This document shows, in pieces, positions 29,558-41,983 of a DNA stretch of 64,000 bases. The translations under genes were made by a program, and so were the position numbers. How positions within the stretch are numbered: position 1 is the stretch's first letter; every line of letters begins with the position of its first letter. Location: the NCBI GenBank assembly GCA_964464605.1, contig CAYXJN010000005.1:62001-126000 (forward strand), in the 5' to 3' direction. The notes under the pieces are model-generated. The model did no database searches, was not told where the DNA came from, and was given only the letters and a program-made list of their open reading frames with translations. This DNA comes from an uncultured Ignavibacteriales bacterium. GTDB taxonomy: Bacteria > Zixibacteria > MSB-5A5 > GN15 > FEB-12.

Positions 29558-31093
29558 TTATGCATTTGCGCCGCCCAGCTTGCGGCGTATGAAGCCGGGC
29601 AGGCGGCGAATAATACTGATTTTGTCATCCGGCTGTAATATAACCATCCAAAGGCCAACAAGCATGCAGAGAGTCATCGCGCCGGCATCGAGAAATAAAT
29701 GGACCCAGGTGTCCGGAGGGTCCATATAGGCGACCAGATAGCCGATCGGCAGGGTAAACAAGGCTGCGAAAAACATCGAGCGGAACATTTCTTTATAGAA
29801 AATTCTTACCGGGGCGTTGATAGCTTTATAAAACATGATCGGATAAATCGCAGTGTAGATAATCAACTGGGAAATGACCGTTCCAATCGCCACGCCGATA
29901 ATTCCCATCGTTTGCGCAAGAATGACTGAGAGCACAATTTTGATAACTGCCTCAGCTCCCAAAATATAGACCGCGAGTTTGTGGCGGGAAATGCCATACA
30001 ACACTGATGTGGCAATCGTTTGCGGAATAGAAATAGCCGTCGGAATAGCCAGGAGGTAGAGAATGGTAACGGACTCTTCGAATCCCTTTTTTACCCACAG
30101 GTGAATGAAGGGGCTGCCTAAAATGAACATTCCGACTGCAAAGAACCCGGATAGATAATACAGGTAACGGGTCGATTTGCTGTATAAGCTGACAATCCGC
30201 TCGAATTTATTTTCAGCTTCGAAGTGGCTGATCGTCGGCACAATCGGGGTGGCAATGGCATACACCGAGGTTCGCAGCTGCATGAGCAATTGCGAGGCGA
30301 TGGAATAGACGGCAACCGCTTCGACCGAAATGAACCGCCCGATAATAATATTATCGCTTTGATTGCTGATAACCCAGGTTGCCGCGACTAAAAACGAGAA
30401 GAAGGCATATGAAAACATTTCTTTGGTGGTATCTTTGTCAATAGCGGCGAAAGAAAAACGAACTTCCGGAAACAACCGTTTACGAACGGAACTCATCACG
30501 ATTCGGCTCAGTAACTGAAGTACCAAAACCAGAACGGCCATTTCGATCAGGCCATATCCCATTTCCAGCAGGACAACCATCCCGACGGTCTGGAGGACTT
30601 TGGTACTGAAATTTATATAGAAGCTGATATCGAACCGATGGAACGGTCCGAGACTGGAGGAAGGCATCTGCACGAAATTAAGCGCCGTACTTAATCCTAA
30701 AATTAAAAGCGCCCACTGGGCAACATGGTCATATTCGGTCGGAATCTGAAACGAATGTAAAAATCCGAATACGACAATAACCGTTACGGCGAAAAACACA
30801 ATCCCGACGATGGTGTAGATGCGAATCGAGGAGCTGAATACTTTGTTTAAGCCGACCCAATCTTTGACGGCGTAATATCTCGAAATAAAGCGGACAATCG
30901 ACTGACGCATCCCCATATCCACCATTTCCATATAGGTGATAATGGAGAATAAGAGCGTCCAGATACCGTACTGCTCTTTACCGAGCTTATTGATAAAATA
31001 GGGAGTGAAAAAGAAGGTCAATAACAGCCCAAGCACCATCCCGGCGTAGGAGGTAACGAGGTTTTTGAATAATTGACCGACAACCGATTTCAT
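29558..31093 (-). CDS. Wzx-like polysaccharide flippase (MOP superfamily)
   Basis: About 14 TM helices; TPYFINKLGKEQYGIW, DMGMRQSIVRF, SDNIIIG, VAVYSIA. Confidence 0.9.
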   Translation of the reverse strand: MKSVVGQLFKNLVTSYAGMVLGLLLTFFFTPYFINKLGKEQYGIWTLLFSIITYMEMVDMGMRQSIVRFISRYYAVKDWVGLNKVFSSSIRIYTIVGIVFFAVTVIVVFGFLHSFQIPTEYDHVAQWALLILGLSTALNFVQMPSSSLGPFHRFDISFYINFSTKVLQTVGMVVLLEMGYGLIEMAVLVLVLQLLSRIVMSSVRKRLFPEVRFSFAAIDKDTTKEMFSYAFFSFLVAATWVISNQSDNIIIGRFISVEAVAVYSIASQLLMQLRTSVYAIATPIVPTISHFEAENKFERIVSLYSKSTRYLYYLSGFFAVGMFILGSPFIHLWVKKGFEESVTILYLLAIPTAISIPQTIATSVLYGISRHKLAVYILGAEAVIKIVLSVILAQTMGIIGVAIGTVISQLIIYTAIYPIMFYKAINAPVRIFYKEMFRSMFFAALFTLPIGYLVAYMDPPDTWVHLFLDAGAMTLCMLVGLWMVILQPDDKISIIRRLPGFIRRKLGGANA

Positions 31094-31104
31094 GTGTTGC
31101 TTGT

Positions 31105-32199
31105 TTATACGGTAAAGGGTCGTTTGAGTGCGGGCAAAATTTGGTATTTACCCAGCATAATTGCTTTCGCCAACAGCGTGTTGTTTGCCGTCGTTGTGCT
31201 TGTGTGACTGCGGACACCACTTGCCCATTTTTGCTTGTATAGGCTCGAATCTCCTCCCATATCGAGCTGGGCAGGCTGATCTTTTGAAAATAGCTCCTGC
31301 AACAGGTCTAGTTTTAGATTTTCACCGGGATGATAGTACTTCAGGCTGGTGTCAAAATCTGTCCGAATGAGCGAATAGTTGTTCTGATAGGTCAAATAGT
31401 AATCGAATCCGACCGGTTTGCCGCCGATATGCAGAATGCGGATATCGACCCAGCCATGTGCCAATGCTTTCTGAGTGTATTGCTCGTAAAACCGTTTTTG
31501 TCCCGGCACCTGGCCGATAGCCGATCCGGAATCCTGTTTCCAGCTTCGTGATGATACGTCAAGCATAGTTGACACGATATATTCAGGATTCGTTGCAGGA
31601 TTGCAACGTTCAATTCGTGGATTTTCCGCTCTTTGCAGGCGATTTAAACACTCGGATTTGATAAATGTTCTTCTGTCACGGTGTAAGCTTTTCAAATAGT
31701 TCTCCCATGTACCGGAAATGTCTAAATACGGCGATTGACGGCCGTTCTGAGCGAAATAGCGAAGACTGCTTTGCGTGCCAAGAAAATCGGTATACCAATC
31801 GGTCATTAGCTGTGCGGATTCCATATTCTCCGTTACCAGCAGATCCCAATCAGGAATTGATGGGAACGAATCGAACAACCGCGCGGCATCGTTCTGCTCT
31901 TTCGCAATAAAATTGCAGCGCGGGGAGATCGGTGATTGCAGGAATTTGAGCAGTTTTGCCGAAACGAATTTGAACTTCTGCGTCGTGCGCATGAGGGGAG
32001 CAATAGAAACCAATTGCCCGTCCCGCCAGCCGGTTTGAATAGCGAGTTGCGGCCGCGTGTCCCTCGTTGTTATCCAGGTATCGAACCATTCATGGCGCAT
32101 GAATACATGCGCCAGCGGGGTGCTGAGTACCAATTCGTTCCAAGCGTCAGCAAGGCTCTGGAACTCATCATATGAATCAATGAATCGAAACTGCTTCAC
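31105..32199 (-). CDS. CelD/BcsL-like GNAT (Acetyltransf_6) protein
   Basis: WNELV...FMRHEWFDTW, SIAPLM, SPYLDISGTWENY, SSRSWK, HPG, DMGGDSSLYKQKWA. Confidence 0.85.
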   Translation of the reverse strand: MKQFRFIDSYDEFQSLADAWNELVLSTPLAHVFMRHEWFDTWITTRDTRPQLAIQTGWRDGQLVSIAPLMRTTQKFKFVSAKLLKFLQSPISPRCNFIAKEQNDAARLFDSFPSIPDWDLLVTENMESAQLMTDWYTDFLGTQSSLRYFAQNGRQSPYLDISGTWENYLKSLHRDRRTFIKSECLNRLQRAENPRIERCNPATNPEYIVSTMLDVSSRSWKQDSGSAIGQVPGQKRFYEQYTQKALAHGWVDIRILHIGGKPVGFDYYLTYQNNYSLIRTDFDTSLKYYHPGENLKLDLLQELFSKDQPAQLDMGGDSSLYKQKWASGVRSHTSTTTANNTLLAKAIMLGKYQILPALKRPFTV

Positions 32200-32331
32200 G
32201 TAATCCCATAGTTGGCCGGTTTTTCGGAAATCGCTTAGTATATAAATCGGTTGAGAGTATAACAGTATTCACTCAGTATCAACGTTTTACACGCTAAAAC
32301 TGGTTCCCACAAGGGACTGAGAAACTTTTGC

Positions 32332-33483
32332 CTAACAAAGAAAAGTGAGGGAGAAGATTTCGTTGACTGAATCGACAGGCAGAGAAGGGATAACGATAAT
32401 TGCGGCTAAATGAAAACGCTTTAAGAGTCGTTTGAGCACCATCCGCCCAATCGGGCAGAAAATGGAATGATCGGCGCCAAGACCGGCTCCGATTCTACCG
32501 ATCTTCATGAGATCATTCCCTGAAAGCGGGTAATCAACTAATTCCGGTTTTGTGCCAAATCCAAGCTTATACCCGGCCTTTCTGGCAAGGGTCAGGGTTT
32601 CCTGGGTAAATGAGCCTTCTGGATAGCAGATTGTTTCTATCGGCTGGTTCAGCTTTGCTTCGAGTACCTGTTTTGACTCAACCAGTTCTTTTTCCGACTG
32701 TTTGGCGCCGAGCAGTTCGAAGCGATTATGGCTGACCGTGTGTGAACCGATGGCAATGCCGGTTTGCGGGAGTTCCTGAATCTGCTGCCAGCTCATCGGA
32801 TGAATGTTCAGCGTATACTTATTATCGATAATCGTTTCCCATTTTTCTAAAATAGCATCCCGTTCTTCCGGACATAAATCCGCAAGCGGCGCAATTAACT
32901 GGCGTCGAATTTCATATTTGTACTGGGCGAAATTGGGGCGATACCGTTCGAAGACTGCTTTTACTTTTTCCGGTAATTTGGTTTCTTCGATTGCCTGTTT
33001 CCACACGTCTCCGTCACCGTTCAGGTTGTTTAGCACGTTAGTAACCCGCAGATGGTAAAACCGCTGGTCGGTATCAACCATGCCGGTTGGTATATACGCA
33101 ACCGCAGGGAGTTTGCGTTCCCAGAGAATCGGGAATGCATATGTCCAGTTTTCACTGTCGCCGTCATCGTACGTCAACAGCGCGAGCGGCTTACTCTGCG
33201 TTACCGTTTCTTTGCCCGTAACGATATCCTGAAAGCGAGAGAGCGGGATAATCTCAAAATAGCGAGAGATAATTTCAATTTGACGGTTGTATTCTTGAAG
33301 CTGTAACCCTCGTTCGTAACCCTGCAAAAATTCCGGACGGTTTGGATCAGGCACAACCCGGTGATAGGCAAAAACAGCAACAACCGGCTTTCCTTCGATA
33401 CGGGAAACAAGCCAAAGCAAAAACCGCCAAAAACCAGAATGGTAGGCTAGCCACGAACAGAGTTTAACACCGACGTTTTTCAT
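32332..33483 (-). CDS. Polysaccharide deacetylase (CE4/NodB)
   Basis: FAYHRV, LTYDDG, GSHTVSH, CYPEG. Confidence 0.9.
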   Translation of the reverse strand: MKNVGVKLCSWLAYHSGFWRFLLWLVSRIEGKPVVAVFAYHRVVPDPNRPEFLQGYERGLQLQEYNRQIEIISRYFEIIPLSRFQDIVTGKETVTQSKPLALLTYDDGDSENWTYAFPILWERKLPAVAYIPTGMVDTDQRFYHLRVTNVLNNLNGDGDVWKQAIEETKLPEKVKAVFERYRPNFAQYKYEIRRQLIAPLADLCPEERDAILEKWETIIDNKYTLNIHPMSWQQIQELPQTGIAIGSHTVSHNRFELLGAKQSEKELVESKQVLEAKLNQPIETICYPEGSFTQETLTLARKAGYKLGFGTKPELVDYPLSGNDLMKIGRIGAGLGADHSIFCPIGRMVLKRLLKRFHLAAIIVIPSLPVDSVNEIFSLTFLC

Positions 33484-33513
33484 AGGTATGTGTCTGCGTG
33501 TAGTACAGTATCT

Positions 33514-33542
33514 AATATATGACTAATAGGTGCATCATTCAA
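33514..33542 (-). promoter_or_regulatory. Sigma70-type promoter of the EPS cluster
   Basis: Minus strand TTGAAT-N17-TATATT, 30 nt upstream of ATG 33483. Confidence 0.6.
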
Positions 33543-33713
33543 CAAAGATGCGTCTTCTAACGCAAAAAAAGATGCGTCAAATATTGTACATACCTCGGGG
33601 TACATAAAATCCGGCATAAAAACAGCCAGTTGATGCTCTGCTTGGACATAATTGGACATATGCCCAGTATATCGGCAGTTTTTTGGCGATTCCGAAGGGG
33701 AAGAAAACCAGGG

Positions 33714-36050
33714 TCAGTTGGCGGAATCAGGTGTCAAAATGAGCGTTTGAACACTGTGGGCAATGACTTGCTCATGCGTAAATGGCAGATTCCACCGGCG
33801 ACCGGACTCCCACAGCGGGAAAAAGTCAAAGAAATGGTCGCTCATGGGGTTACCGGATTCTCCGGCCGGCAAAACGAGGGTTGCCTCGTCGATTTTTGCG
33901 AAATCGACAATAAACCGCATACTCGGGGCGACAATGGTTCGAAATGAACCATCCTTTGTCGGGACGGCGAAAGCGGCGTTAAGTGTTCCGGACGAACCCG
34001 CCCACGGCCACGGTCCTTTTCGTAATTCCAAAATCGAACTGACCACCGGCACTTCGGCGAAAGGATGCTGCATCGCCAAGCTGTTTATATCCCCCCAGCG
34101 GTTATTGCCGAGATCACCGACTGCGTTTTTCATAGCGGAAAGCAGAGTTGAATCATCGGGTGCGGCGTTTTCGCCGAAAATTTCATCCTCAAGCCAGATT
34201 GTCCGGACACCCCGGGCGAGTGAATCGCCGACCAGGGATGCATGCGACGCCAGCTTCAAATGGCGGATAAACAGCTGGATGACCGCCGTCGGACGCGATT
34301 CCAGATCGGTAGCGCCATCCCATTGAGCGACCGTATCGGCGAGTGCCGCATTCCCCATCTTTCGTAGCTGATCCGCCGCCAGATTTTTCCAGCGCACGAG
34401 ACTGAAATCATGGCAGTCCATCTGGAACTTCTCGCAATCCCGCACCGAAACAAGAACTGCCGAGTCAAGCAGATGATTGATCCGCAGAATCCGGTCGGCG
34501 GCAAACGAGCCGGGAAGTTCATAGGGGAGATTTGTCGCCGGGATATTATTACAGGATGCCAGCCAACCGCGGGGCGGGTTATAAGCATGCGGAGTCATTT
34601 CGAGTGGCCAATACCCGCGCCATTCACACGTACTGTCACTTCCGTTGAGTGGTGCATTACTGTTTGGCAACGGTCGAATCGGGATTGGCGTACCTAACTG
34701 GTAACCGATATTGCCTTGTTTATCTGCGTACATCCAATTGGCATCAAGCGCGCCAAGCGTGGTAACAGCGCGTCGGAAATCTTCAAACTTGCTGACCGTT
34801 CGCAGGGCAAAACCGGAACTGACCGCCTGATTTAAATCGGCATCATACCCTGCCCAACGCTGCGATATAATTTCTTTGGTGGTGGAATCTTTCCAGATAA
34901 CCGGACCATGATGGGTCAGCCAGACCTGCTCGACATGCGGGGAATCAATGCCGTGAATGAACAGCGTTTCGGGAATAACAGAAAAGCTGCGCCACGTTTC
35001 ACCGCTCCAGTAAACGAGTGAATCCTCCGCCTGAGTCGTTTCCCGATAATATTCGGTGACATCGATTCCGGCGGCGGTAAAGGCAAAGGCCGCTTTGCCG
35101 TTGTGTCCCATCACCACGAACGGTAATCCGGGCAAAGAAATTCCCACAGTGCCGCTTGAATCTGCTGCTATGTGTAAACCCACCGCATACCAGAATTGCG
35201 GGAGCCGGCCGATTTCAAGATGCGGATCGGATGATAAAATCGCATTTCCGGAACTGCTTTTACCGGGGCTAATCACCCAGGCATTCGAACCGCCGCTTGG
35301 GGTAGTTAGTCCCGGTAAAATAGCCTGCGCAGTCGCATGACGGAATTGATCGTCGATATCAAAAAAGCTGATTGAAGAATCAGTCGGTACGGTCGGCGGC
35401 GCCCACGATGGATATTTTGTGCTAATCGTGTTGACACTTCCGGCTCCCTTGGTTTTGTACAATTCCAAAAACCAGCTATCACGGTTCTGCAATGAATTGG
35501 AAAACCAGGTTTGAAAGCTCAGGGCGGCAAGACAGTCTTTGACTGTCCATTCAGTGAAGGGGATGCCTAAGATTTGAAATTCGAAGGGAAGCGCTTTACA
35601 GTTTTTGACATAGAAATTAACCCCATCTGCGTAAATCTGTAGACGCTTTTTGTTTTCTTCCGTTAGCGTTGCCATCGCGCTGTCGGCAAGGCGATGGTGA
35701 CCAATTCGGCGCGCTTCCAAATCATATGATAAAGAAATTGGTCCCAGTAACTCAGAAAGTTTCCCCTGCGAAATACGGCGGATAAGCTCCATTTGAAACA
35801 GGCGGTCGGATGCATGCAGCCACCCCATCGAAAAAAGCGCGTCCTGTTCATTCTGTGCCCATACCTGCGGAATACCGAGACTGTCGAAGGTTATTTCAAC
35901 CGGATGCGAGAGTGCTTCGACGGTTATTGATCCTTCCCGCTGTGGAACGGAGTTGTGGAGCGTGACATACACATACAGCACCGCTCCGGCAAGCATGCTT
36001 GCCAAAAGAAGCAGGACAGAACGAAGGATGGTTTTCGTACGGGGTTTCAC
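33714..36050 (-). CDS. Penicillin acylase family Ntn-hydrolase, membrane-anchored or exported
   Basis: N-terminal TM; GWLHASDRLFQME, autoproteolysis site GG|SNAW, SDPHL, PGLP.V.MGHN, PSMRFIVD, GESGNP. GTG start overlaps the upstream TAG. Confidence 0.92.
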   Translation of the reverse strand: MKPRTKTILRSVLLLLASMLAGAVLYVYVTLHNSVPQREGSITVEALSHPVEITFDSLGIPQVWAQNEQDALFSMGWLHASDRLFQMELIRRISQGKLSELLGPISLSYDLEARRIGHHRLADSAMATLTEENKKRLQIYADGVNFYVKNCKALPFEFQILGIPFTEWTVKDCLAALSFQTWFSNSLQNRDSWFLELYKTKGAGSVNTISTKYPSWAPPTVPTDSSISFFDIDDQFRHATAQAILPGLTTPSGGSNAWVISPGKSSSGNAILSSDPHLEIGRLPQFWYAVGLHIAADSSGTVGISLPGLPFVVMGHNGKAAFAFTAAGIDVTEYYRETTQAEDSLVYWSGETWRSFSVIPETLFIHGIDSPHVEQVWLTHHGPVIWKDSTTKEIISQRWAGYDADLNQAVSSGFALRTVSKFEDFRRAVTTLGALDANWMYADKQGNIGYQLGTPIPIRPLPNSNAPLNGSDSTCEWRGYWPLEMTPHAYNPPRGWLASCNNIPATNLPYELPGSFAADRILRINHLLDSAVLVSVRDCEKFQMDCHDFSLVRWKNLAADQLRKMGNAALADTVAQWDGATDLESRPTAVIQLFIRHLKLASHASLVGDSLARGVRTIWLEDEIFGENAAPDDSTLLSAMKNAVGDLGNNRWGDINSLAMQHPFAEVPVVSSILELRKGPWPWAGSSGTLNAAFAVPTKDGSFRTIVAPSMRFIVDFAKIDEATLVLPAGESGNPMSDHFFDFFPLWESGRRWNLPFTHEQVIAHSVQTLILTPDSAN

Positions 36051-37405
36051 TAATTATTAATACCGCAGGCGGGGGCGGGAATACGGCCGCCGCGACGGAT
36101 AAAATCGGCAGAGGAAAACCGGGAGACCGGCATAATCGGGGCGGTTCCTAAAAGGCCGCCATACTCGACTGATTGACCGACTGTTTTGCCGGGAACCGGA
36201 ATAATACGGACGGCAGTGGTTTTGTTGTTCACCACACCGATAGCGGCTTCATCGGCAATAATCGCCGCGATAGTTTCAACTGGTGTATCACCGGGAACAG
36301 CGACCATATCAAGTCCGACTGAGCAGACAGCCGTCATCGCTTCCAATTTTTCAAGTGATATTGCACCTGCTTCGACTGCGCGAATCATACCGGCATCTTC
36401 AGAAACCGGAATGAACGCGCCGGATAACCCACCGACAAACGAGGAAGCCATCAACCCTCCTTTTTTCACCGCGTCATTCAGCAGCATGAGCGCTGCCGTA
36501 GTGCCGGGTGCGCCGCAGCGTTCGATTCCCATCGCTTCCAGAATATCCGCAACCGAATCTCCTTCGGCGGGAGTGGGGGCTAACGAGAGATCGACAATCC
36601 CAAACGGAACGCCGAGCCGTTCGGATACTTTTCGTCCTGCCAGTTCTCCCATACGGGTTACTTTAAAGGCAGTGCGTTTGATAACTTCAGCCAGCGTTCC
36701 GATATCACAGCTGCCTGCTTTGCGCACGGCGTTGAGTACGACGCCGGGGCCGGAGATACCGACATTGATAACCACTTCCGGTTCGGAAACGCCATGAAAG
36801 GCACCGGCAATGAACGGATTGTCTTCTACCGCATTGGCGAAGACGACCAATTTGCAGCAACCGAGCGCATTTTCCGTTTTGGCGGCGGTGTCTTTGATGA
36901 TATGACCCATCAGCGCGATCGCATCCATGTTGATTCCCGCTTTGGTCGAGGCGACATTTACCGATGAGCAGATTCGTTTAGTGGTAGCAAGGGCATCCGG
37001 AATCGATTCGATTAGGTTGCGATCACCGGTGGTCATCCCTTTTTGTACTAATGCGCCGTAGCCACCTAAATAATCGATACCGAGTTCTGCTGCGCAGTTG
37101 TCGAGTGTTTCGGCGATTTCGATGAGGGTCCCTTTATCATGTCCGCTTCCGACGATACCGATCGGGGTTACAGCGATTCTTTTGTTCGCGATCGGAATAC
37201 CGTAATCGGCGGAAACTTTCTCGACGGTTTTGACATGATGCTCTGCTTTGGCAAGCAGTTTGGCGCGGATATTGGCGATTAATCGCTTCGGGTCGGAAGT
37301 CGCACAATCCAACAGCGAAATGCCCATGGTGACGGTACGGATGTCGAGATGCTCGACTTCCGTCATATGAATCGTTTCGACTATTTCCTGCGGATGGTAT
37401 GACAT
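36050..37405 (-). CDS. UPF0210/DUF711 PFL-like family protein
   Basis: [81 protein letters not shown]. Confidence 0.93.
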
Positions 37406-37429
37406 AAAATTATGTACGAACGAAAAACG

Positions 37430-37957
37430 TTAAATACGGTGCATGTAGCGGAAGATGTCTTCATGCATGATGAACACCTTCATGCCCAGCTGCGTTTCGG
37501 TATCTTTGATCCGGTCACGTACCAGCGCAAAGTCCATTTTGCAGTCCTGAATATCGACAATCATGATCATCGAGAAAAAATCCTGCATGATTGTCTGCGA
37601 AATATCTTCGATATTGCAGTGCAGTTCCGCCAGCACTTTGGTAATGGCCGCGACAACGCCCGGGCGGTTTTTGCCGAAGGCCGCCACGATCACGCGGTTG
37701 CTTTGTCCCTGTGATATCTTGTTGTAAAGCCCGGAAACATCGCTCCCCGGTTCAGTGAAATTTGCCAGTGAAGATTTGGAATCCCGTGATGAGGCCGCGC
37801 AGGTGACAGCAGGAATCGACGGATTCCCCTGATCCTGTTTCATCGAATCGACGACTGAGTCGATTACCCGGCGGAGCGCTTTGGCATCAAGCGATGCGCC
37901 CATCCGCCCGACAACAATTTCCGTAATCCGGCTGATTTCCTGTTCAGAAAAATTCAT
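37430..37957 (-). CDS. UPF0237 ACT-domain protein with ~85-aa N-terminal extension
   Basis: GKNRPGVVA, NIEDISQTIMQDFFSMIMIVD and C-terminal EDIFRYMHRI; lies directly upstream of UPF0210 as in the known pair. Confidence 0.9.
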   Translation of the reverse strand: MNFSEQEISRITEIVVGRMGASLDAKALRRVIDSVVDSMKQDQGNPSIPAVTCAASSRDSKSSLANFTEPGSDVSGLYNKISQGQSNRVIVAAFGKNRPGVVAAITKVLAELHCNIEDISQTIMQDFFSMIMIVDIQDCKMDFALVRDRIKDTETQLGMKVFIMHEDIFRYMHRI

Positions 37958-37960
37958 GTG

Positions 37961-38098
37961 TTACGCGCGTGATGAGAATTGCGAACGTTCGGTGTATCGT
38001 TCGATCAGTTTTGCGGCGACGAACCCGATGATGATACCGGCAACGAATGAAGCCAGCCATTCCAGACGGCGTTTGGTTTGTTCGCTTAACGGTTTCAT
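37961..38098 (-). CDS. Small single-pass membrane protein, 45 aa (absent from ORF track)
   Basis: MKPLSEQTKRRLEWLASFVAGIIIGFVAAKLIERYTERSQFSSRA*; ATG overlaps the BMC-P stop (ATGA); TAA ends 3 nt before the ACT gene ATG, filling the gap exactly. Confidence 0.75.
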   Translation of the reverse strand: MKPLSEQTKRRLEWLASFVAGIIIGFVAAKLIERYTERSQFSSRA

Positions 38099-38421
38099 CC
38101 GGCTTTTTTCTTGTAATGAATTTTTTCGGGGTCCAAATCGCCGGTATAGAAGCTCGACTGTACTTCGTATTCGTCGATGATTCCGGTAACGGCTGCTTCG
38201 ATGGATGCGTTCTCATTCCCAATCGCCAAACGAGCGGCGCGGCCATAGGCGACAATCACCACTTCACCTTCGCCTGCACCGAGTACATCGGCTGCGACAA
38301 CGGTATCGGTATTCGGTGCTTTTTTCAGGTTAATGGGCTGGATAATGAGAAATTTGAGGCCATCGGTATTCGATGTTTTTCTCGTTGCCCAGAGTGTGCC
38401 GACGACGCGCCCGATAAACAT
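38095..38421 (-). CDS. BMC vertex pentamer (BMC-P, EutN/CcmL family)
   Basis: MFIGRVVGTLWATRK...GLKFLII...VAADVLGAGEGEVVIVAYGRAAR...IEAAVTGIID. Confidence 0.95.
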   Translation of the reverse strand: MFIGRVVGTLWATRKTSNTDGLKFLIIQPINLKKAPNTDTVVAADVLGAGEGEVVIVAYGRAARLAIGNENASIEAAVTGIIDEYEVQSSFYTGDLDPEKIHYKKKAG

Positions 38422-38423
38422 GG

Positions 38424-38942
38424 CTAACCCAGTTTCAGCGCGCTCTTGAGGGCATCCACCAACTGCGCTTTGCCGGCCATCGAAATTTCCCGTCCCTTAA
38501 TGCTGAGGTTAGAAACGGTGCGGGCTAACTGACGAAGTTCAGTAACAGTCATGTTTTCAAGTTCATGCGCGGAGGTTGGCTGCTTGATACTATCGCCGCC
38601 ATATTGCGAGTCACTGTGAATCGAGCTTAAGGCAGGGCGATTATCGGGATTGTATTTCGATACATAACGCGCATCCGGCAGTATCGTTACCAGTTCATTG
38701 TCCGGGCGGGGGATAACAGTGGTAGCGACCACTTCACCTGCTTGTTCTGCTGCGCGAGCGCCGGCTTCAACGGCTGATTGCACTGCGCTGAGTTCACCTT
38801 CAATGCGAAGGGTAAGATAGGCGGCATCGGTAACTTCAGCGGAAGATACCACCACACCGGCCGCTTTTGCTGCTGCATCGGCGGCGACAATCGCGCCGAT
38901 AAGGCCGTTTGTTTCGATAAGTCCAAGTGCGAACATTGTCAT
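38424..38942 (-). CDS. BMC shell hexamer (BMC-H) with C-terminal helical extension
   Basis: ALGLIETNGLIGAIVAADAAAKAA, GELSAVQSAVEAG, VIPRP; tail ELENMTVTELRQLAR...GREISMAGKAQLV. Confidence 0.95.
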   Translation of the reverse strand: MTMFALGLIETNGLIGAIVAADAAAKAAGVVVSSAEVTDAAYLTLRIEGELSAVQSAVEAGARAAEQAGEVVATTVIPRPDNELVTILPDARYVSKYNPDNRPALSSIHSDSQYGGDSIKQPTSAHELENMTVTELRQLARTVSNLSIKGREISMAGKAQLVDALKSALKLG

Positions 38943-38948
38943 TGGCCG

Positions 38949-38977
38949 AAGATACCCGCATTCAAACTTTCTGTAAA
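38949..38977 (-). promoter_or_regulatory. Sigma70-type promoter of the BMC operon, probably leaderless
   Basis: Minus strand TTTACA-N17-TATCTT, then 6 nt, then ATG; no SD sequence. Confidence 0.55.
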
Positions 38978-39030
38978 TGAATACTTAGTGACGTTGTCAC
39001 CTTTCTCTTTTTGATCGCATGATTTACCCC

Positions 39031-39069
39031 AAAAAGAAACCACCCGTATCCCCCTCGGACACGAGTGGC
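39031..39069 (-). terminator. Intrinsic terminator in the activator-BMC intergenic region
   Basis: Minus strand CCACTCGTGTCC-GAGGG-GGATACGGGTGG then TTTCTTTTT; two G-U pairs form only on the minus strand. Confidence 0.75.
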
Positions 39070-39124
39070 ACCCACCAAAGAGAAAAGAACAGACCGACTG
39101 CTTTACAGCGTCGGATTCAGGACA
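39031..39124 (-). ncRNA. Candidate ~95-nt small RNA
   Basis: Lies between a sigma54-type promoter and a terminator; GNRA-capped hairpin CCGACGCT-GTAA-AGCAGTCGG, pyrimidine-rich linker, terminator stem. Confidence 0.45.
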
Positions 39125-39134
39125 CAAAATGTGT

Positions 39135-39150
39135 CGCAAATTTTTTGCCG
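39135..39150 (-). promoter_or_regulatory. Candidate sigma54 -24/-12 promoter
   Basis: Minus strand CGGCAAAAAATTTGCG has exact GG-N10-GC spacing with GGCA and TTGC cores; downstream of a sigma54 activator gene. Confidence 0.5.
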
Positions 39151-39277
39151 TACCGATGTGGATAACGTGACCGGTTGTCGTATCGCATTGCAAGTCATTG
39201 CGTTACAGGGAGTGCGGCGCATCGAATGTGATGGAAATGAAAGAAAAAGTCGTATGATTTTACGAGCAGGTTGATCT

Positions 39278-39326
39278 AAATGAAAACGGTAAGCGATTGT
39301 TTTGTAATCACTTACCGTTTCATTTT
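39278..39326. repeat. Long imperfect inverted repeat (~21-bp arms)
   Basis: AAATGAAAACGGTAAGCGATT-GTTTTGT-AATCACTTACCGTTTCATTTT. Confidence 0.85.
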
Positions 39327-39389
39327 GACTCTATTTGAGAACGGTACGAATTTCAGTAAAATTCGTGAAACCGTACGTTCTTTTGTCGT

Positions 39390-41636
39390 CTAATGGAGCG
39401 CAACTCCTTCAACATGAATCTGGTACCGCTTGATCTTCGAACGGACCGTTGCTTCATGAATTCCGAGCAGGCGGGCAGCTTCGGATTTGTTTCCTTTTGC
39501 CGCCAAGAGTGCATCGGTAAGCAGCTGACGTTCAAATTGCTCAATGCGATCGAAGAAGGTGGTCGATTGGACCGCCGTCGTGTTGGTAAACATCGGCCGG
39601 GCGAGTTCAACCAGATCACCGTTACCCAGTTCTTCTGCCTGAGCTTCCAAGCGTTTCACTTTGTTATAGAGTTCGCGCACATTACCCGGCCAATGATAGG
39701 CAAGGAATGTTTGTAACAGTTCTGCGCTGACTTTAAATCCGCGCTGTCCGAGTGTTCCATTCGTAATGAACAGATCAAGCAGCAGCGGGATATCTTCTTT
39801 CCGTTCACGCAGCGCTGGGATATAGTGAATATCTCCGTCACAGATGCGGAAATACAGATCACGGCGGAACAGACCGCCTTCAACAAGCGAGGTCAAATCC
39901 CGATTTGTGGCGCAGATTAGGTTGATATCCAGTTTGACGGGTACCGTGCCGCCGAGCGGAGTAACTTCCCGACGTTCGAGCACACCGAGCAGTTTGGCCT
40001 GTAAATGAAGCGGCATGTCGCCGATTTCATCCAGAAACAATACACCGCCGTTGGCCGCGACGAACAATCCGGCTTTGTCCTCACGTGCGTCGGTAAATGC
40101 ACCGCGGCGATAGCCGAACAATTCCGATTCCAAAAGGGAGTCAGGTACACCGGCACAGTTGATCGACACAAACGGCGTTCCCGGGCGAACCTTGGAATGG
40201 AAAAAACGCGCCATCTGATCTTTACCGACACCTGTTTCTCCCGTTAACAAAACGGGAAGATTGGAGCGTGAGCCGATCAGCACGATCTGCTGTTTTACCC
40301 GTTCGACCGCAGCACAGCGAGTGATGAAATCAGCACTCTGCTGTTTGCTCTGATCGCTGCCGGCGATTTTGCGCTGATTGGTTTGTTCGAGCGCTTCGCC
40401 GATTTTATCGATCATCGTCGTGTGTCCGGATTGCGCGTAATATTCTTCAGCGCGAATCAGGTGCAGTACCCGTTTGTTGACCGGTATAGCAGTTGCGCAG
40501 CCGGCAAAGTATAGGATTTCCGCTTCTTCGAATCGCACACCGGATTGACGGGCTGATTCGATTGCACGGGCCCAGAATTCCTTTGCGGTTTCCTGCTGTG
40601 TTTCCGCTTCGGCAATCATGGCTAAAATGCGGTGCAGTCCGGCAAGATCACCGGTATTCGGCGTTTCCTGCATGACCACGATCGCTTTCTGCGCCAGCTG
40701 ACGGGCAGTGCGATAGTCACGAAGCGAGAGATTAGTTTCGGCTAATTGGCGCATCACGCGCGCGGTTAAACCGGAATCAGGCAGTACCTGTTCGGATAAA
40801 CGCAACGCATGAGCCAATACCTGTTTGCTTTCTTCAAGCAAACCCATACGGCGGCGCAGTTCGCCGATGTAGCTGTAGTACATCACTTCATCTCGCTTGT
40901 CGCCTGATAAACGGAGCGGTGTTACCGCTTCGCTCAAGGTTGCATCCGCTTCGGCATAATGACCGGATTGGATACAGGCGTAGGCGTAGGACATAAGGGC
41001 ACGGGCTGTTTCGGCATGGTCACGCAACGCGCGGGAGAGTTCGATATTGGTGCGCAAATGCGCTTTTGCGGATTGCAAGTTTCCGGAGAACAGATGGATA
41101 CGGCCGATATTACCGGTCATCAGGGCAATTTTTGCCGTATCGTTAAGTTTGTGCGCGATTTCCAGTGCATCGGCCAGAACATTCAACGCATTTTTCAAAT
41201 CATGCTGCTTGAAATAAATTCCGGCGAGACTGTTCAGCGCCCGCGCCTGACCTTCCAACAGGTCAAGGCGACGGAAGAGTGATTCGGCATCACGGAATGC
41301 CTGTTCCGCTTCTTTCGGTTTATCACTCTTTTTGAAAATATTGCCCAGCACGAAGAAAACTTCTGCGAGTTCCGCGGTTTCTCCGTTTTGGGTAAGGAAA
41401 TGCTGCGCCATGCGGGCAGCTTTTAGTGCGGCTGTGAGGTCAGCCAGCGCGCTGTATGCAGAAGCGGCCATTCTCATGAGAATGCCGGATTCTGCATCGG
41501 CTCGCTGTTCAATAACGGGACGATGAATATCCACGTACCGGACCACACCCGCAAAATCCCGCTTTTCAAGTAATGTCGCGGCTATGCGAACATCAAATGA
41601 TGTGGGATTCGACGATTCTGTGAAGGTACGGTTCAT
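39390..41636 (-). CDS. TPR-repeat sigma54-dependent activator (bEBP) with Fis-type HTH
   Basis: About 400 aa of TPR-like repeats; Walker A GETGVGKD, ESELFG, GAFTDA, FLDEIGD, FRRDLYFR, WPGNVREL; HTH GNKSEAARLLGI. Confidence 0.93.
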   Translation of the reverse strand: MNRTFTESSNPTSFDVRIAATLLEKRDFAGVVRYVDIHRPVIEQRADAESGILMRMAASAYSALADLTAALKAARMAQHFLTQNGETAELAEVFFVLGNIFKKSDKPKEAEQAFRDAESLFRRLDLLEGQARALNSLAGIYFKQHDLKNALNVLADALEIAHKLNDTAKIALMTGNIGRIHLFSGNLQSAKAHLRTNIELSRALRDHAETARALMSYAYACIQSGHYAEADATLSEAVTPLRLSGDKRDEVMYYSYIGELRRRMGLLEESKQVLAHALRLSEQVLPDSGLTARVMRQLAETNLSLRDYRTARQLAQKAIVVMQETPNTGDLAGLHRILAMIAEAETQQETAKEFWARAIESARQSGVRFEEAEILYFAGCATAIPVNKRVLHLIRAEEYYAQSGHTTMIDKIGEALEQTNQRKIAGSDQSKQQSADFITRCAAVERVKQQIVLIGSRSNLPVLLTGETGVGKDQMARFFHSKVRPGTPFVSINCAGVPDSLLESELFGYRRGAFTDAREDKAGLFVAANGGVLFLDEIGDMPLHLQAKLLGVLERREVTPLGGTVPVKLDINLICATNRDLTSLVEGGLFRRDLYFRICDGDIHYIPALRERKEDIPLLLDLFITNGTLGQRGFKVSAELLQTFLAYHWPGNVRELYNKVKRLEAQAEELGNGDLVELARPMFTNTTAVQSTTFFDRIEQFERQLLTDALLAAKGNKSEAARLLGIHEATVRSKIKRYQIHVEGVALH

Positions 41637-41983
41637 CAGTTAGCTCCTCCATTTTTAACGGAGCTGTTGTCTGACGGAGCGGGTTGCGGAGCAACGCGCG
41701 GCTGTTTTGGTGCGATCAGGAGATTGAGTAAGGTGTTCGAAAGCCAGATTTCAAACCGCGGTGAAAGCGTAGCGCTTCGCATTGCCTGACGGCCTGCTTT
41801 ACCGCCGCCGTTACCATTCGTGCCGGAGCCATCGCCACCCCACGGGTGATCTTCATTTTCCACGCCATTTTCGGTATTAGCCGGACGGTGGTAATACGGA
41901 CTTTCCCGTCCGTCTATATCCCCCACAAAAGCAAGGGTGGCAGTGAAGAGCATACTCAAAGTGAGTACAAATGAGCGTTTCAT
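41636..41983 (-). CDS. Small secreted low-complexity protein (115 aa) with EDHPWGG motif
   Basis: AAGGAG RBS; signal peptide MKRSFVLTLSMLFTATLAF; TGA overlaps the activator ATG (TGATG). Confidence 0.8.
   Translation of the reverse strand: MKRSFVLTLSMLFTATLAFVGDIDGRESPYYHRPANTENGVENEDHPWGGDGSGTNGNGGGKAGRQAMRSATLSPRFEIWLSNTLLNLLIAPKQPRVAPQPAPSDNSSVKNGGAN

Follow-up and report, generated by a model that had tools for sequence, protein, structure and literature searches.

Shell genes and an ACT/DUF711 pair in one operon

We analysed a 64,000-nt stretch of contig CAYXJN010000005.1 from an uncultured Ignavibacteriales bacterium (hereafter the window), whose genes were defined by a list of open reading frames (ORFs) together with Pfam and NCBIfam searches. 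Its minus strand holds a bacterial microcompartment (BMC) operon, in which the shell genes for BMC-H and BMC-P are followed by genes for a small membrane protein, an ACT protein, a DUF711/UPF0210 protein and an N-terminal nucleophile (Ntn) hydrolase. We read this as a main BMC locus in reduced form with DUF711/UPF0210 and its ACT partner as the signature cargo, and assign a probability of roughly 0.6 to this reading. The features are, from upstream to downstream:

41636..41983, minus strand: ORF for a small protein of 115 aa with a signal-peptide-like N-terminus and no Pfam match; 1-nt overlap with the activator gene downstream
39390..41636, minus strand: sigma-54-dependent activator with N-terminal TPR (TPR_12), AAA+ Sigma54_activat domain (PF00158, E 3e-56) and Fis-type helix-turn-helix (HTH_8)
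39135..39150, minus strand: candidate sigma-54-type -24/-12 element (GG-N10-GC), from a pattern search and alignment A3
39039..39089, minus strand: conserved 5' leader, terminator-like, with a pyrimidine tract (39075-39089), a hairpin (39039-39069) and a T-run after it
38424..38942, minus strand: BMC-H of 172 aa ('H-long'; PF00936, E 1e-20, residues 5-80) with a C-terminal extension of ~90 aa
38095..38421, minus strand: BMC-P, shell pentamer (vertex; PF03319, E 1e-26), the sole copy in the genome
37961..38098, minus strand: ORF for a 45-aa membrane protein with one hydrophobic span and no Pfam match
37430..37957, minus strand: ACT protein of 175 aa, UPF0237/PRK00194 type (ACT_6, E 3e-13, residues 88-162; PRK00194, residues 87-175)
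36050..37405, minus strand: DUF711/UPF0210 (PF05167, E 1e-186, 621 bits; PRK05313, 717 bits)
33714..36050, minus strand: Penicil_amidase (Ntn) hydrolase of 778 aa (PF01804, E 5e-156) with an N-terminal hydrophobic span

The six head-to-tail ORFs from BMC-H to the amidase are separated by 2, -4, 3, 24 and -1 nt as calculated from the coordinates, the same gaps from which the earlier note had described BMC-H, BMC-P, the 45-aa protein, ACT, UPF0210 and the Ntn acylase as one tight minus-strand unit. Positions 33600-39300 are found, each time in one contig and without any difference, in sequencing runs from three studies. Although any of these runs may be the source of the window, the compact order is improbable as an artefact of assembly. 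The exact locus of this organism recurs in metagenomes of 7 studies, covering bioreactor, sludge, aquaculture and rhizosphere samples, with no RNA data set among those listed, and the system thus occurs in engineered water systems. In the main text of the BMC catalog a main locus is defined as BMC-H and BMC-P in one contiguous locus (Sutter et al., 2021; PMC8217296). With the PF00936 and PF03319 genes 2 nt apart the window holds such a main locus, and the option of a satellite locus raised before falls by the catalog's own definition (PMC8217296).

A reduced form of a larger conserved locus

A sample of 151 genomes of the order was searched for BMC-P, and 20 of the loci obtained were enlarged and compared by tblastn; together with the window these make up the 21 loci referred to below. 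BMC-P matches were obtained in 32 of the 151 genomes and, besides the window genome, in 30 of 98 genomes of its family, spread over 16 of 77 genera. The orthologues were 69-83% identical in 29 further genomes, with one partial match of 57% in G137. ACT and DUF711 follow BMC-P on the same strand in 16 of the 20 enlarged loci (DUF711 78-84% identical, ACT aligned over its full length), and the adjacency is thus not unique to the window genome. One of the remaining four loci has ACT at the contig end, two are broken after the PduS-like or BMC-T gene, and G030 has the ACT/DUF711 pair on a different contig, where the 7.8 kb upstream of it contain no shell gene.

From ORF clustering and Pfam matches, the common order is small secreted protein, sigma-54 activator, H-long, BMC-P, small membrane ORF, PduS-like protein, BMC-T, ACT and DUF711. 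An orthologue of the activator is found upstream of BMC-H in 18 of 21 loci, and also in most loci of the species-level scan described below, and the PduS-like protein (440 aa; Complex1_51K, SLBB, Fer4 and RnfC_N domains) is likewise encoded in 18 of 21. BMC-T is a 183-aa tandem protein for which PduT is the nearest NCBIfam model, under its cut-off, and which has a Cys conserved in at least 80% of the 21 sequences. As neither a PduS-like nor a BMC-T gene is present anywhere in the window genome, the window locus is a reduced version of this larger conserved locus. A second family of the class (f19) shows the order BMC-H, BMC-P, PduS, BMC-T, ACT, DUF711, and one of its loci, L166, consists of BMC-H, BMC-P, ACT and DUF711 only, the same reduction as in the window. 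PduS and BMC-T were lost in the window genome and, independently, in this one genome of another family. Family f10 has the parts at three separate loci, with H-long, BMC-P, PduS and BMC-T at the first, a short BMC-H and an aldehyde dehydrogenase (AldDH) at the second, and ACT and DUF711 at the third. A deletion variant in G126 (L053/L078) has the N-terminal part of the PduS-like protein joined in frame to the ACT linker, with BMC-T and the helices of ACT (see below) removed.

Losses of this kind could also mean that the window locus is a decaying remnant, left without a working compartment once PduS and BMC-T had gone, in which ACT and DUF711 persist. The PduS-like gene is kept in 18 of 21 loci, yet is missing together with BMC-T from the window genome, and both the PduS-ACT fusion by deletion in L053/L078 and the many genomes of the family that keep only activator and H-long would agree with decay. 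Against this, all six ORFs are intact, their proteins are 70-83% identical to the orthologues, the extension of the ACT protein (see below) is intact as well, and the same set of BMC-H, BMC-P, ACT and DUF711 remains in L166 from an unrelated family. Moreover, one BMC-P and two BMC-H, the shell set of the window genome, is also all that the catalogued ARO type has according to the catalog's main text (PMC8217296). Decay is in our view quite improbable.

Shell genes and DUF711 occur together

DUF711 matches were obtained in 30 of the 151 genomes of the order. Combined with the BMC-P search, the genomes are distributed as follows:

BMC-P present, DUF711 present: 28 genomes
BMC-P present, DUF711 absent: 4 genomes (G126, G137, G146, G150), 82-92% complete
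BMC-P absent, DUF711 present: 2 genomes (G128, G148), 72-78% complete
BMC-P absent, DUF711 absent: 117 genomes

No DUF711 was found in the BMC-P-less genomes of the window's family that are at least 93% complete. BMC-P and DUF711 are gained and lost together, and the co-occurrence of PF00936 and PF03319 with DUF711 and ACT in relatives, which had been suggested as a check, was borne out (28 genomes with both, 6 with one, 117 with neither). As related genomes are not independent of each other, these counts overstate the number of evolutionary events. In a sample of the class, comprising 208 genomes of at least 90% completeness each, DUF711 was detected in 42 and BMC domains in 68 genomes, and 34 of the 42 DUF711 holders also have BMC domains. 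The other eight, all from family f13, have none. DUF711 of f13 (L170-L173) is divergent, with 385-412 aa, 26-30% identity and no adjoining ACT gene.

A scan at species level (one genome per species) with alignment A1 of the ACT protein, followed by tblastn, led to 80 loci. The 24 closest (L056-L079) are from metagenome-assembled genomes (MAGs) labelled Zixibacteria, Calditrichaeota, GN15 or 'uncultured Ignavibacteriales', and in 22 of these the stretch also carries shell or PduS genes; of the two others, L069 has none in 10 kb upstream and L077 has only 241 nt upstream. Shell genes were found in none of the other 56 loci within 10 kb or the stretch available. ACT lies directly upstream of DUF711, as in the window, in 46 other loci. 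Among the genomes with a plain ACT of ~90-120 aa (Bacillota, Actinomycetota, methanogens) a BMC domain was detected in 5 of 46. The statement that the UPF0237/UPF0210 pair normally has no shell genes was therefore correct. Neighbours of the plain pairs in the 56 loci were housekeeping or unrelated genes only (IleRS, LspA, RluD, a glycosyltransferase, a kinase and others).

From these neighbourhoods one could argue that the adjacency in the window is inherited gene order without a functional link, and that ACT and DUF711 are a housekeeping pair. The position amid IleRS, LspA and RluD in other phyla would fit, as would the SDR and Iso_dh genes downstream of DUF711 in some relatives, which proved to be mere flanking genes that are present without the BMC block too. 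The counts disfavour it, with 28 genomes that have both genes against 6 with one, with DUF711 missing from the nearly complete BMC-P-less genomes of the family, and with an ACT extension that is found only in BMC lineages, including those in which the pair is unlinked from shell genes. We consider this explanation very improbable.

A second shell locus with an acylating aldehyde dehydrogenase

The window genome (2.8 Mb, 18 contigs, 100% complete) contains two BMC-domain genes, one BMC-P (PF03319) and one DUF711 gene according to profile searches. The second BMC-H, of 94 aa, is on another contig (G000:C11), between a helix-turn-helix regulator and an AldDH of 511 aa. This enzyme belongs to the acylating pfam00171 type (PRK15398, 592 bits; cut-off 403); its best PDB matches are 5JFL, 6GVS and 4C3S, deposited as 'aldehyde dehydrogenase', followed by weaker matches to acetylating acetaldehyde dehydrogenases and AdhE. 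Ahead of the Pfam match, which begins at residue 75, lie an amphipathic helix and, after it, a low-complexity linker. With a hydrophobic moment of 0.72, attained by 0.6% of shuffles, the helix makes the N-terminus look like an encapsulation peptide. The earlier claim that there is no AldDH thus stands for the operon but not for the genome, in which an AldDH beside the second BMC-H co-occurs with the locus.

The AldDH gene adjoins a short BMC-H in 8 of 8 loci examined, and an orthologue of at least 60% identity was detected in 27 of the 151 genomes of the order. Of these 27, 23 belong to the 28 genomes that have BMC-P as well as DUF711, 3 belong to the six with one of the two, and 1 is a genome with neither (71% complete). 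A phosphotransacylase of the PduL type (PF06130) gave no match in the 100% complete window genome, which encodes one housekeeping PTA_PTB enzyme on contig C4. Its further shell, AldDH and phosphotransacylase genes, proposed as something to list, amount to the short BMC-H with AldDH, no PduL and the one PTA_PTB. No iron-containing alcohol dehydrogenase (Fe-ADH) was found above the cut-off in this genome; other alcohol dehydrogenase families were not searched. Because the second locus, with a BMC-H and an acylating AldDH carrying an encapsulation-peptide-like N-terminus, co-occurs with the operon, the system is a metabolosome with an incomplete core and not an AldDH-free BMC.

The N-terminal extension of the ACT protein

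The ACT protein is ~85 aa longer at its N-terminus than plain UPF0237. An AlphaFold model places helices at residues 5-19 and 25-41 (nt 37835-37945) and the ACT fold from residue 88 onwards; residues 45-76, for which the pLDDT is less than 50, form a disordered linker. Across the 15 sequences of alignment A1, conservation is high over the first ~45 residues, which include an Asn-Pro...Thr-Cys motif; next come a Pro/Ser-rich linker of very variable length and the ACT domain. Helix 2 has a hydrophobic moment of 0.72, which is attained by 0.1% of shuffles. The catalog's main text describes an encapsulation peptide as an amphipathic helix, ~15-20 aa long, that a flexible linker connects to the cargo (PMC8217296). 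The extension has this layout of a terminal amphipathic helix and a poorly conserved linker, helix 2 providing the amphipathic part, and we propose from sequence and model that it serves as an encapsulation peptide.

In 21 of the 24 closest loci the extension is present and aligns along the entire query. A related extension, starting with a helix of the Leu-Ser-Glu-x-Glu-Ile type, was found in L080-L085, L088, L095, L097 and L110, from Ignavibacteria- and Melioribacteraceae-type genomes in which the pair is far from shell genes. Nine of these genomes were searched, and BMC domains were detected elsewhere in all nine (5/5 and 4/4). The extension was thus seen only in BMC-bearing lineages. When a profile of the extension was searched against all six-frame ORFs of the window genome, only the ACT gene was detected, the next best match having E 0.69. 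Another extension of ~65 aa, unrelated to the one described here, precedes ACT in L090, L091 and L093 (Syntrophomonadaceae/Clostridia MAGs), with a BMC domain in 0 of 3. The suggestion in the earlier note that UPF0210 is encapsulated via its ACT partner fits this distribution; encapsulation itself we infer, as we do any reactive or volatile intermediate of the kind at which the note hinted.

In a quick maximum-likelihood tree of DUF711, the 24 sequences whose ACT partner is extended group together, apart from the 29 plain ones (SH-aLRT 97), with L069 counted among the extension-bearing, shell-remote loci of the tree set. A single recruitment is therefore possible, and the group may also simply mirror the relatedness of the organisms.

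Packaging of ACT and DUF711 as cargo appears probable to us. Alternatively, the real cargo might be the AldDH with another enzyme, and ACT and DUF711 might stay outside the shell, for instance to provide or sense a metabolite, with the extension acting in regulation or oligomerisation. Proteins with an ACT fold commonly bind small ligands, and the NCBIfam search gave a weak GcvR-like match for this protein. Two helices with the Asn-Pro...Thr-Cys motif are more elaborate than a single-helix encapsulation peptide, helix 1 is not significantly amphipathic, and the extension is in no other protein of the genome. On the other side, the extension tracks the presence of BMCs even when the genes are unlinked, DUF711 and BMC-P are gained and lost together, and helices, variable disordered linker and domain in this arrangement correspond to the encapsulation peptide as defined in the catalog's main text (PMC8217296). 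We hold a cargo without ACT and DUF711 to be unlikely.

Several points speak against the pair as packaged cargo all the same. Besides the non-significant amphipathicity of helix 1, the ACT protein of some relatives has lost its helices through deletion, as in L053/L078 and in L077, where the gene retains the linker without the helices, and the extension could serve oligomerisation or regulation instead of targeting. Because the lineages with the extension are related to each other, its correlation with BMCs represents few independent events. The link to an aldehyde is not universal, since a close AldDH is missing from 5 of the 28 genomes that hold BMC-P plus DUF711 and was not found in 4 of 5 Ignavibacteria-type genomes (G152, G154, G294, G295 and G297). 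Finally, DUF711 is a single-copy gene amid housekeeping genes in organisms without BMC, which is odd for a specialised catabolic cargo.

DUF711 has a ribonucleotide reductase-type barrel

DUF711/UPF0210 occurs in many bacteria and archaea, and a crystal structure has been available since 2006. The window protein is covered at profile positions 2-412 of 413 of PF05167, is well above the PRK05313 cut-off of 440 and matches PDB 2HA9 with E 6e-167; in all 52 relatives it has 449-456 aa and no extension. A model calculated from 30 sequences (pLDDT 89) aligned to 2HA9 with Z 54.6. Beyond 2HA9, Foldseek led to class III, II and I ribonucleotide reductases (RNRs) with E ~2e-4, and no usable match outside the own family was obtained from the ESM Atlas. 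In VIA-align the anaerobic class III RNR 4U3E scored Z 15.7 (364 residues aligned, rmsd 3.8), RNRs of classes I and II scored ~15, and the glycyl radical enzyme (GRE) 2F3O scored Z 14.0 with 365 residues aligned. According to the model, DUF711 is a ten-stranded barrel of the RNR/GRE type, in agreement with the ECOD grouping as quoted in PMC4390871, which is a classification of the fold only. As a statement of fold, the label 'PFL-like' given before was correct, in view of Z 14.0 to 2F3O.

Cys183, Cys361, His204 and several Lys, Arg, Asp and Glu residues are invariant over the 30 sequences (alignment A2). No Gly_radical motif was found in DUF711. Likewise, Gly_radical (PF01228) gave no match in the window genome, and no radical-SAM activating enzyme is among the genes of the locus, a genome-wide search for it not having been made. 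A literature search, judged mostly from titles and the openings of abstracts, gave no function for DUF711/UPF0210 and no paper linking DUF711, UPF0210 or UPF0237 with microcompartments. That DUF711 makes the aldehyde for the AldDH is conceivable, though we would not expect it on balance, and radical chemistry, which the modelled fold might suggest, seems rather unlikely.

Comparison with known microcompartments

The catalog's main text and its table of hidden Markov models (HMMs), type descriptions not covered, name neither DUF711 nor PF05167, and the table includes an ACT-domain HMM for ACI and MIC3 and also a PduS HMM (PMC8217296). A catalogued MIC or FRAG subtype may already contain the locus, with its cargo unrecognised. 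As far as outlined in the main text, MIC2-7 and ACI resemble the system described here in having a main locus with BMC-H and BMC-P, a distal pfam00171 AldDH beside a shell gene, no PduL-type phosphotransacylase and no obvious aldehyde-generating signature enzyme (PMC8217296). ACI, which is reported from Acidobacteria only, is set apart by a BMC-P triplet, a class II aldolase and a hydroxyacid dehydrogenase, none of which is seen here, and MIC3 by a CcmP-like BMC-Tdp and an amidohydrolase HMM, neither of which is seen here (both from the same parts of PMC8217296).

FRAG, according to the catalog's main text, has its shell genes spread over as many as six places, includes a BMC-P triplet, lacks nearby enzymes, is found in Ignavibacteriae and allies, and is called enigmatic because its shell genes are far from any enzyme (PMC8217296). 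In the five Ignavibacteria-type genomes mentioned above the shell families are scattered over at least 4 places, with a short BMC-H (H2) and H-long as one pair, the PduS-like protein and BMC-T as another, and extended ACT/DUF711 elsewhere again. Each of the five has at least 3 BMC-P, typically two together and one apart (5/5), and on the complete chromosome of G297 the parts lie at about 0.23, 1.39, 1.52, 1.94 and 3.05 Mb. These genomes match FRAG by description, a resemblance rather than a classification (PMC8217296). The window genome differs from FRAG, as it has one PF03319 gene instead of a triplet and two shell loci, both beside enzymes, namely a consolidated main locus and an AldDH satellite. 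Another Ignavibacteria-type genome has a separate compact BMC locus (L155; G153:C1:101000-120000) with four BMC-P (three next to one another), three short BMC-H, an AldDH sharing 38% identity with that of the window genome, a PduS-like protein and BMC-T.

The GRM type is reminiscent of the present system in the barrel of DUF711, in the PduS-like and PduT-like proteins of the relatives and in the AldDH, whose nearest solved relatives are BMC aldehyde dehydrogenases. It differs from GRM in that DUF711 is roughly half as large as a GRE and matches PF05167 only, the genome has no PF01228, and no activating enzyme is linked. DUF711 is not a member of the GREs, and the relation in fold is a resemblance. 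Piggy-back targeting is known from the diol dehydratase PduCDE, which is packaged via the N-terminus of one subunit. As proposed here, the targeting helix would be on one subunit while the catalytic subunit has none; in contrast to PduCDE, the carrier would be a small ACT-type and normally regulatory subunit, and its binding to the catalytic one is deduced from the pairing of the genes. Compared with the general UPF0210/UPF0237 pair, both family memberships are clear, whereas ACT is longer here and the pair lies inside an operon of shell genes.

Promoter and leader of the operon

The earlier note had given the operon its own promoter. A sigma-70-like match at the upper edge (38977-38949, 9/12) is no better than shuffles, with 8 sites against 6.2 +/- 3.1 expected. 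A -24/-12 element further upstream is a candidate in its place: the pattern [CT]GG[CT]A-N6-[ACT]TGC was detected between activator and BMC-H in 15 of 21 loci, with GG and TGC invariant in alignment A3 (19 sequences) and ~0.04 chance matches per locus by our own estimate (~14 bits). The genome also has rpoN. Judged by its sequence, the element at 39135-39150 would be the better promoter candidate.

The leader comprises an invariant pyrimidine tract and a hairpin of 12-13 bp with an invariant GAGGGG loop. A T-run follows the hairpin in the window; inspection by eye showed one in ~8 of the 19 sequences of the alignment, and several others have a second hairpin with a T-run. Over the 19 sequences, 94.7% of the cells pair and 10 of 12 pairs show compensatory changes on both sides, as compared with 0 of 500 shuffles as good and 37-50% pairing in slid controls. 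The motif is found as a single copy in the genome, and Rfam gave no family at E<=1 over 33300-39600. A function as attenuator is probable, and the leader is possibly a new cis-regulatory RNA of this BMC operon.

Variable and neighbouring genes

An amidase was found downstream in 5 of 21 loci by tblastn and ORF clustering, and a PvdQ-type model matched the window's amidase weakly, far under the cut-off. Considering the 5/21 loci and its N-terminal hydrophobic span of export type, the Ntn acylase was rejected as cargo or core part. It is a variable downstream neighbour and probably exported. Further downstream (29558-33483, minus strand) a polysaccharide deacetylase, a GNAT-type Acetyltransf_6 protein and a Polysacc_synt/MatE-type flippase belong to an unrelated surface-polysaccharide cluster.

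An ORF of 46-97 aa with one hydrophobic span directly follows BMC-P in nine other loci (L036, L041, L042, L046-L048 and L053-L055), making 10 of 21 with the window. These ORFs show weak sequence similarity to the 45-aa ORF of the window, often with Lys-Trp-Tyr ahead of the span. A membrane protein within a shell operon is unusual. At the position of the 115-aa ORF, 11 of 21 loci have small ORFs with a similar N-terminus and a common Gly/Asp-rich stretch ('F6'); at a coverage cut of 50%, the ORF of the window falls outside the 'F6' cluster.

The C-terminal extension of H-long gave a weak SAP-like match (E 0.004, under the cut-off) and ends in a strongly conserved SAP/HeH-like motif, which all 17 relatives listed retain. 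A single BMC-domain match was obtained for 18 genomes of the window's family in the class sample, and H-long beside the activator is retained in all three of those examined (L175, L176 and L177), without BMC-P and DUF711. Downstream of activator and H-long in the BMC-P-less genomes, genes for an epimerase, a class I/II aminotransferase, a short-chain dehydrogenase/reductase (SDR) and Iso_dh were found, in L175 (one of two loci with downstream genes examined) together with AMP-binding and ACPS genes. The SDR and Iso_dh genes 3' of DUF711 in some relatives were rejected as BMC parts, since the same genes follow activator and H-long in genomes without BMC-P, ACT and DUF711, and are mere flanking genes.

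Proposed workings and meaning

From these data the following workings are proposed. The TPR-containing sigma-54 activator would turn on the -24/-12 promoter, and the hairpin of the leader would gate the transcript. H-long, the short BMC-H of the satellite locus and BMC-P would build a small shell. ACT may bind DUF711, as suggested by the pairing of their genes across bacteria and archaea, and its N-terminal amphipathic helices would carry the complex into this shell. The AldDH would be co-packaged via its own encapsulation-peptide-like helix and convert an aldehyde to an acyl-CoA; if co-packaged, the compartment would most likely handle an aldehyde made by DUF711, possibly from an amino-acid-related substrate. 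In most relatives, the PduS-like flavo-iron-sulfur protein and the PduT-like BMC-T would move electrons across the shell.

More tentatively, DUF711 and ACT could be the missing signature enzyme of a group of cryptic BMCs, both the consolidated type of the window and the scattered, FRAG-like ones of Ignavibacteria and allies, with the encapsulation peptide on ACT and a minimal enzyme of the RNR/GRE-barrel type whose redox or radical reaction would yield the aldehyde. If the assignment is true, the locus would provide the first functional context for the orphan DUF711/UPF0210 family across bacteria and archaea. Placing DUF711 in a BMC that has an acylating AldDH, and in most cases an electron module of PduS and PduT, would narrow its chemistry to a reaction whose intermediate is toxic, volatile or redox-sensitive. 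Furthermore, the extended ACT protein would be a sequence tag by which candidate cargo may be recognised even when it is unlinked from shell genes, as in FRAG.

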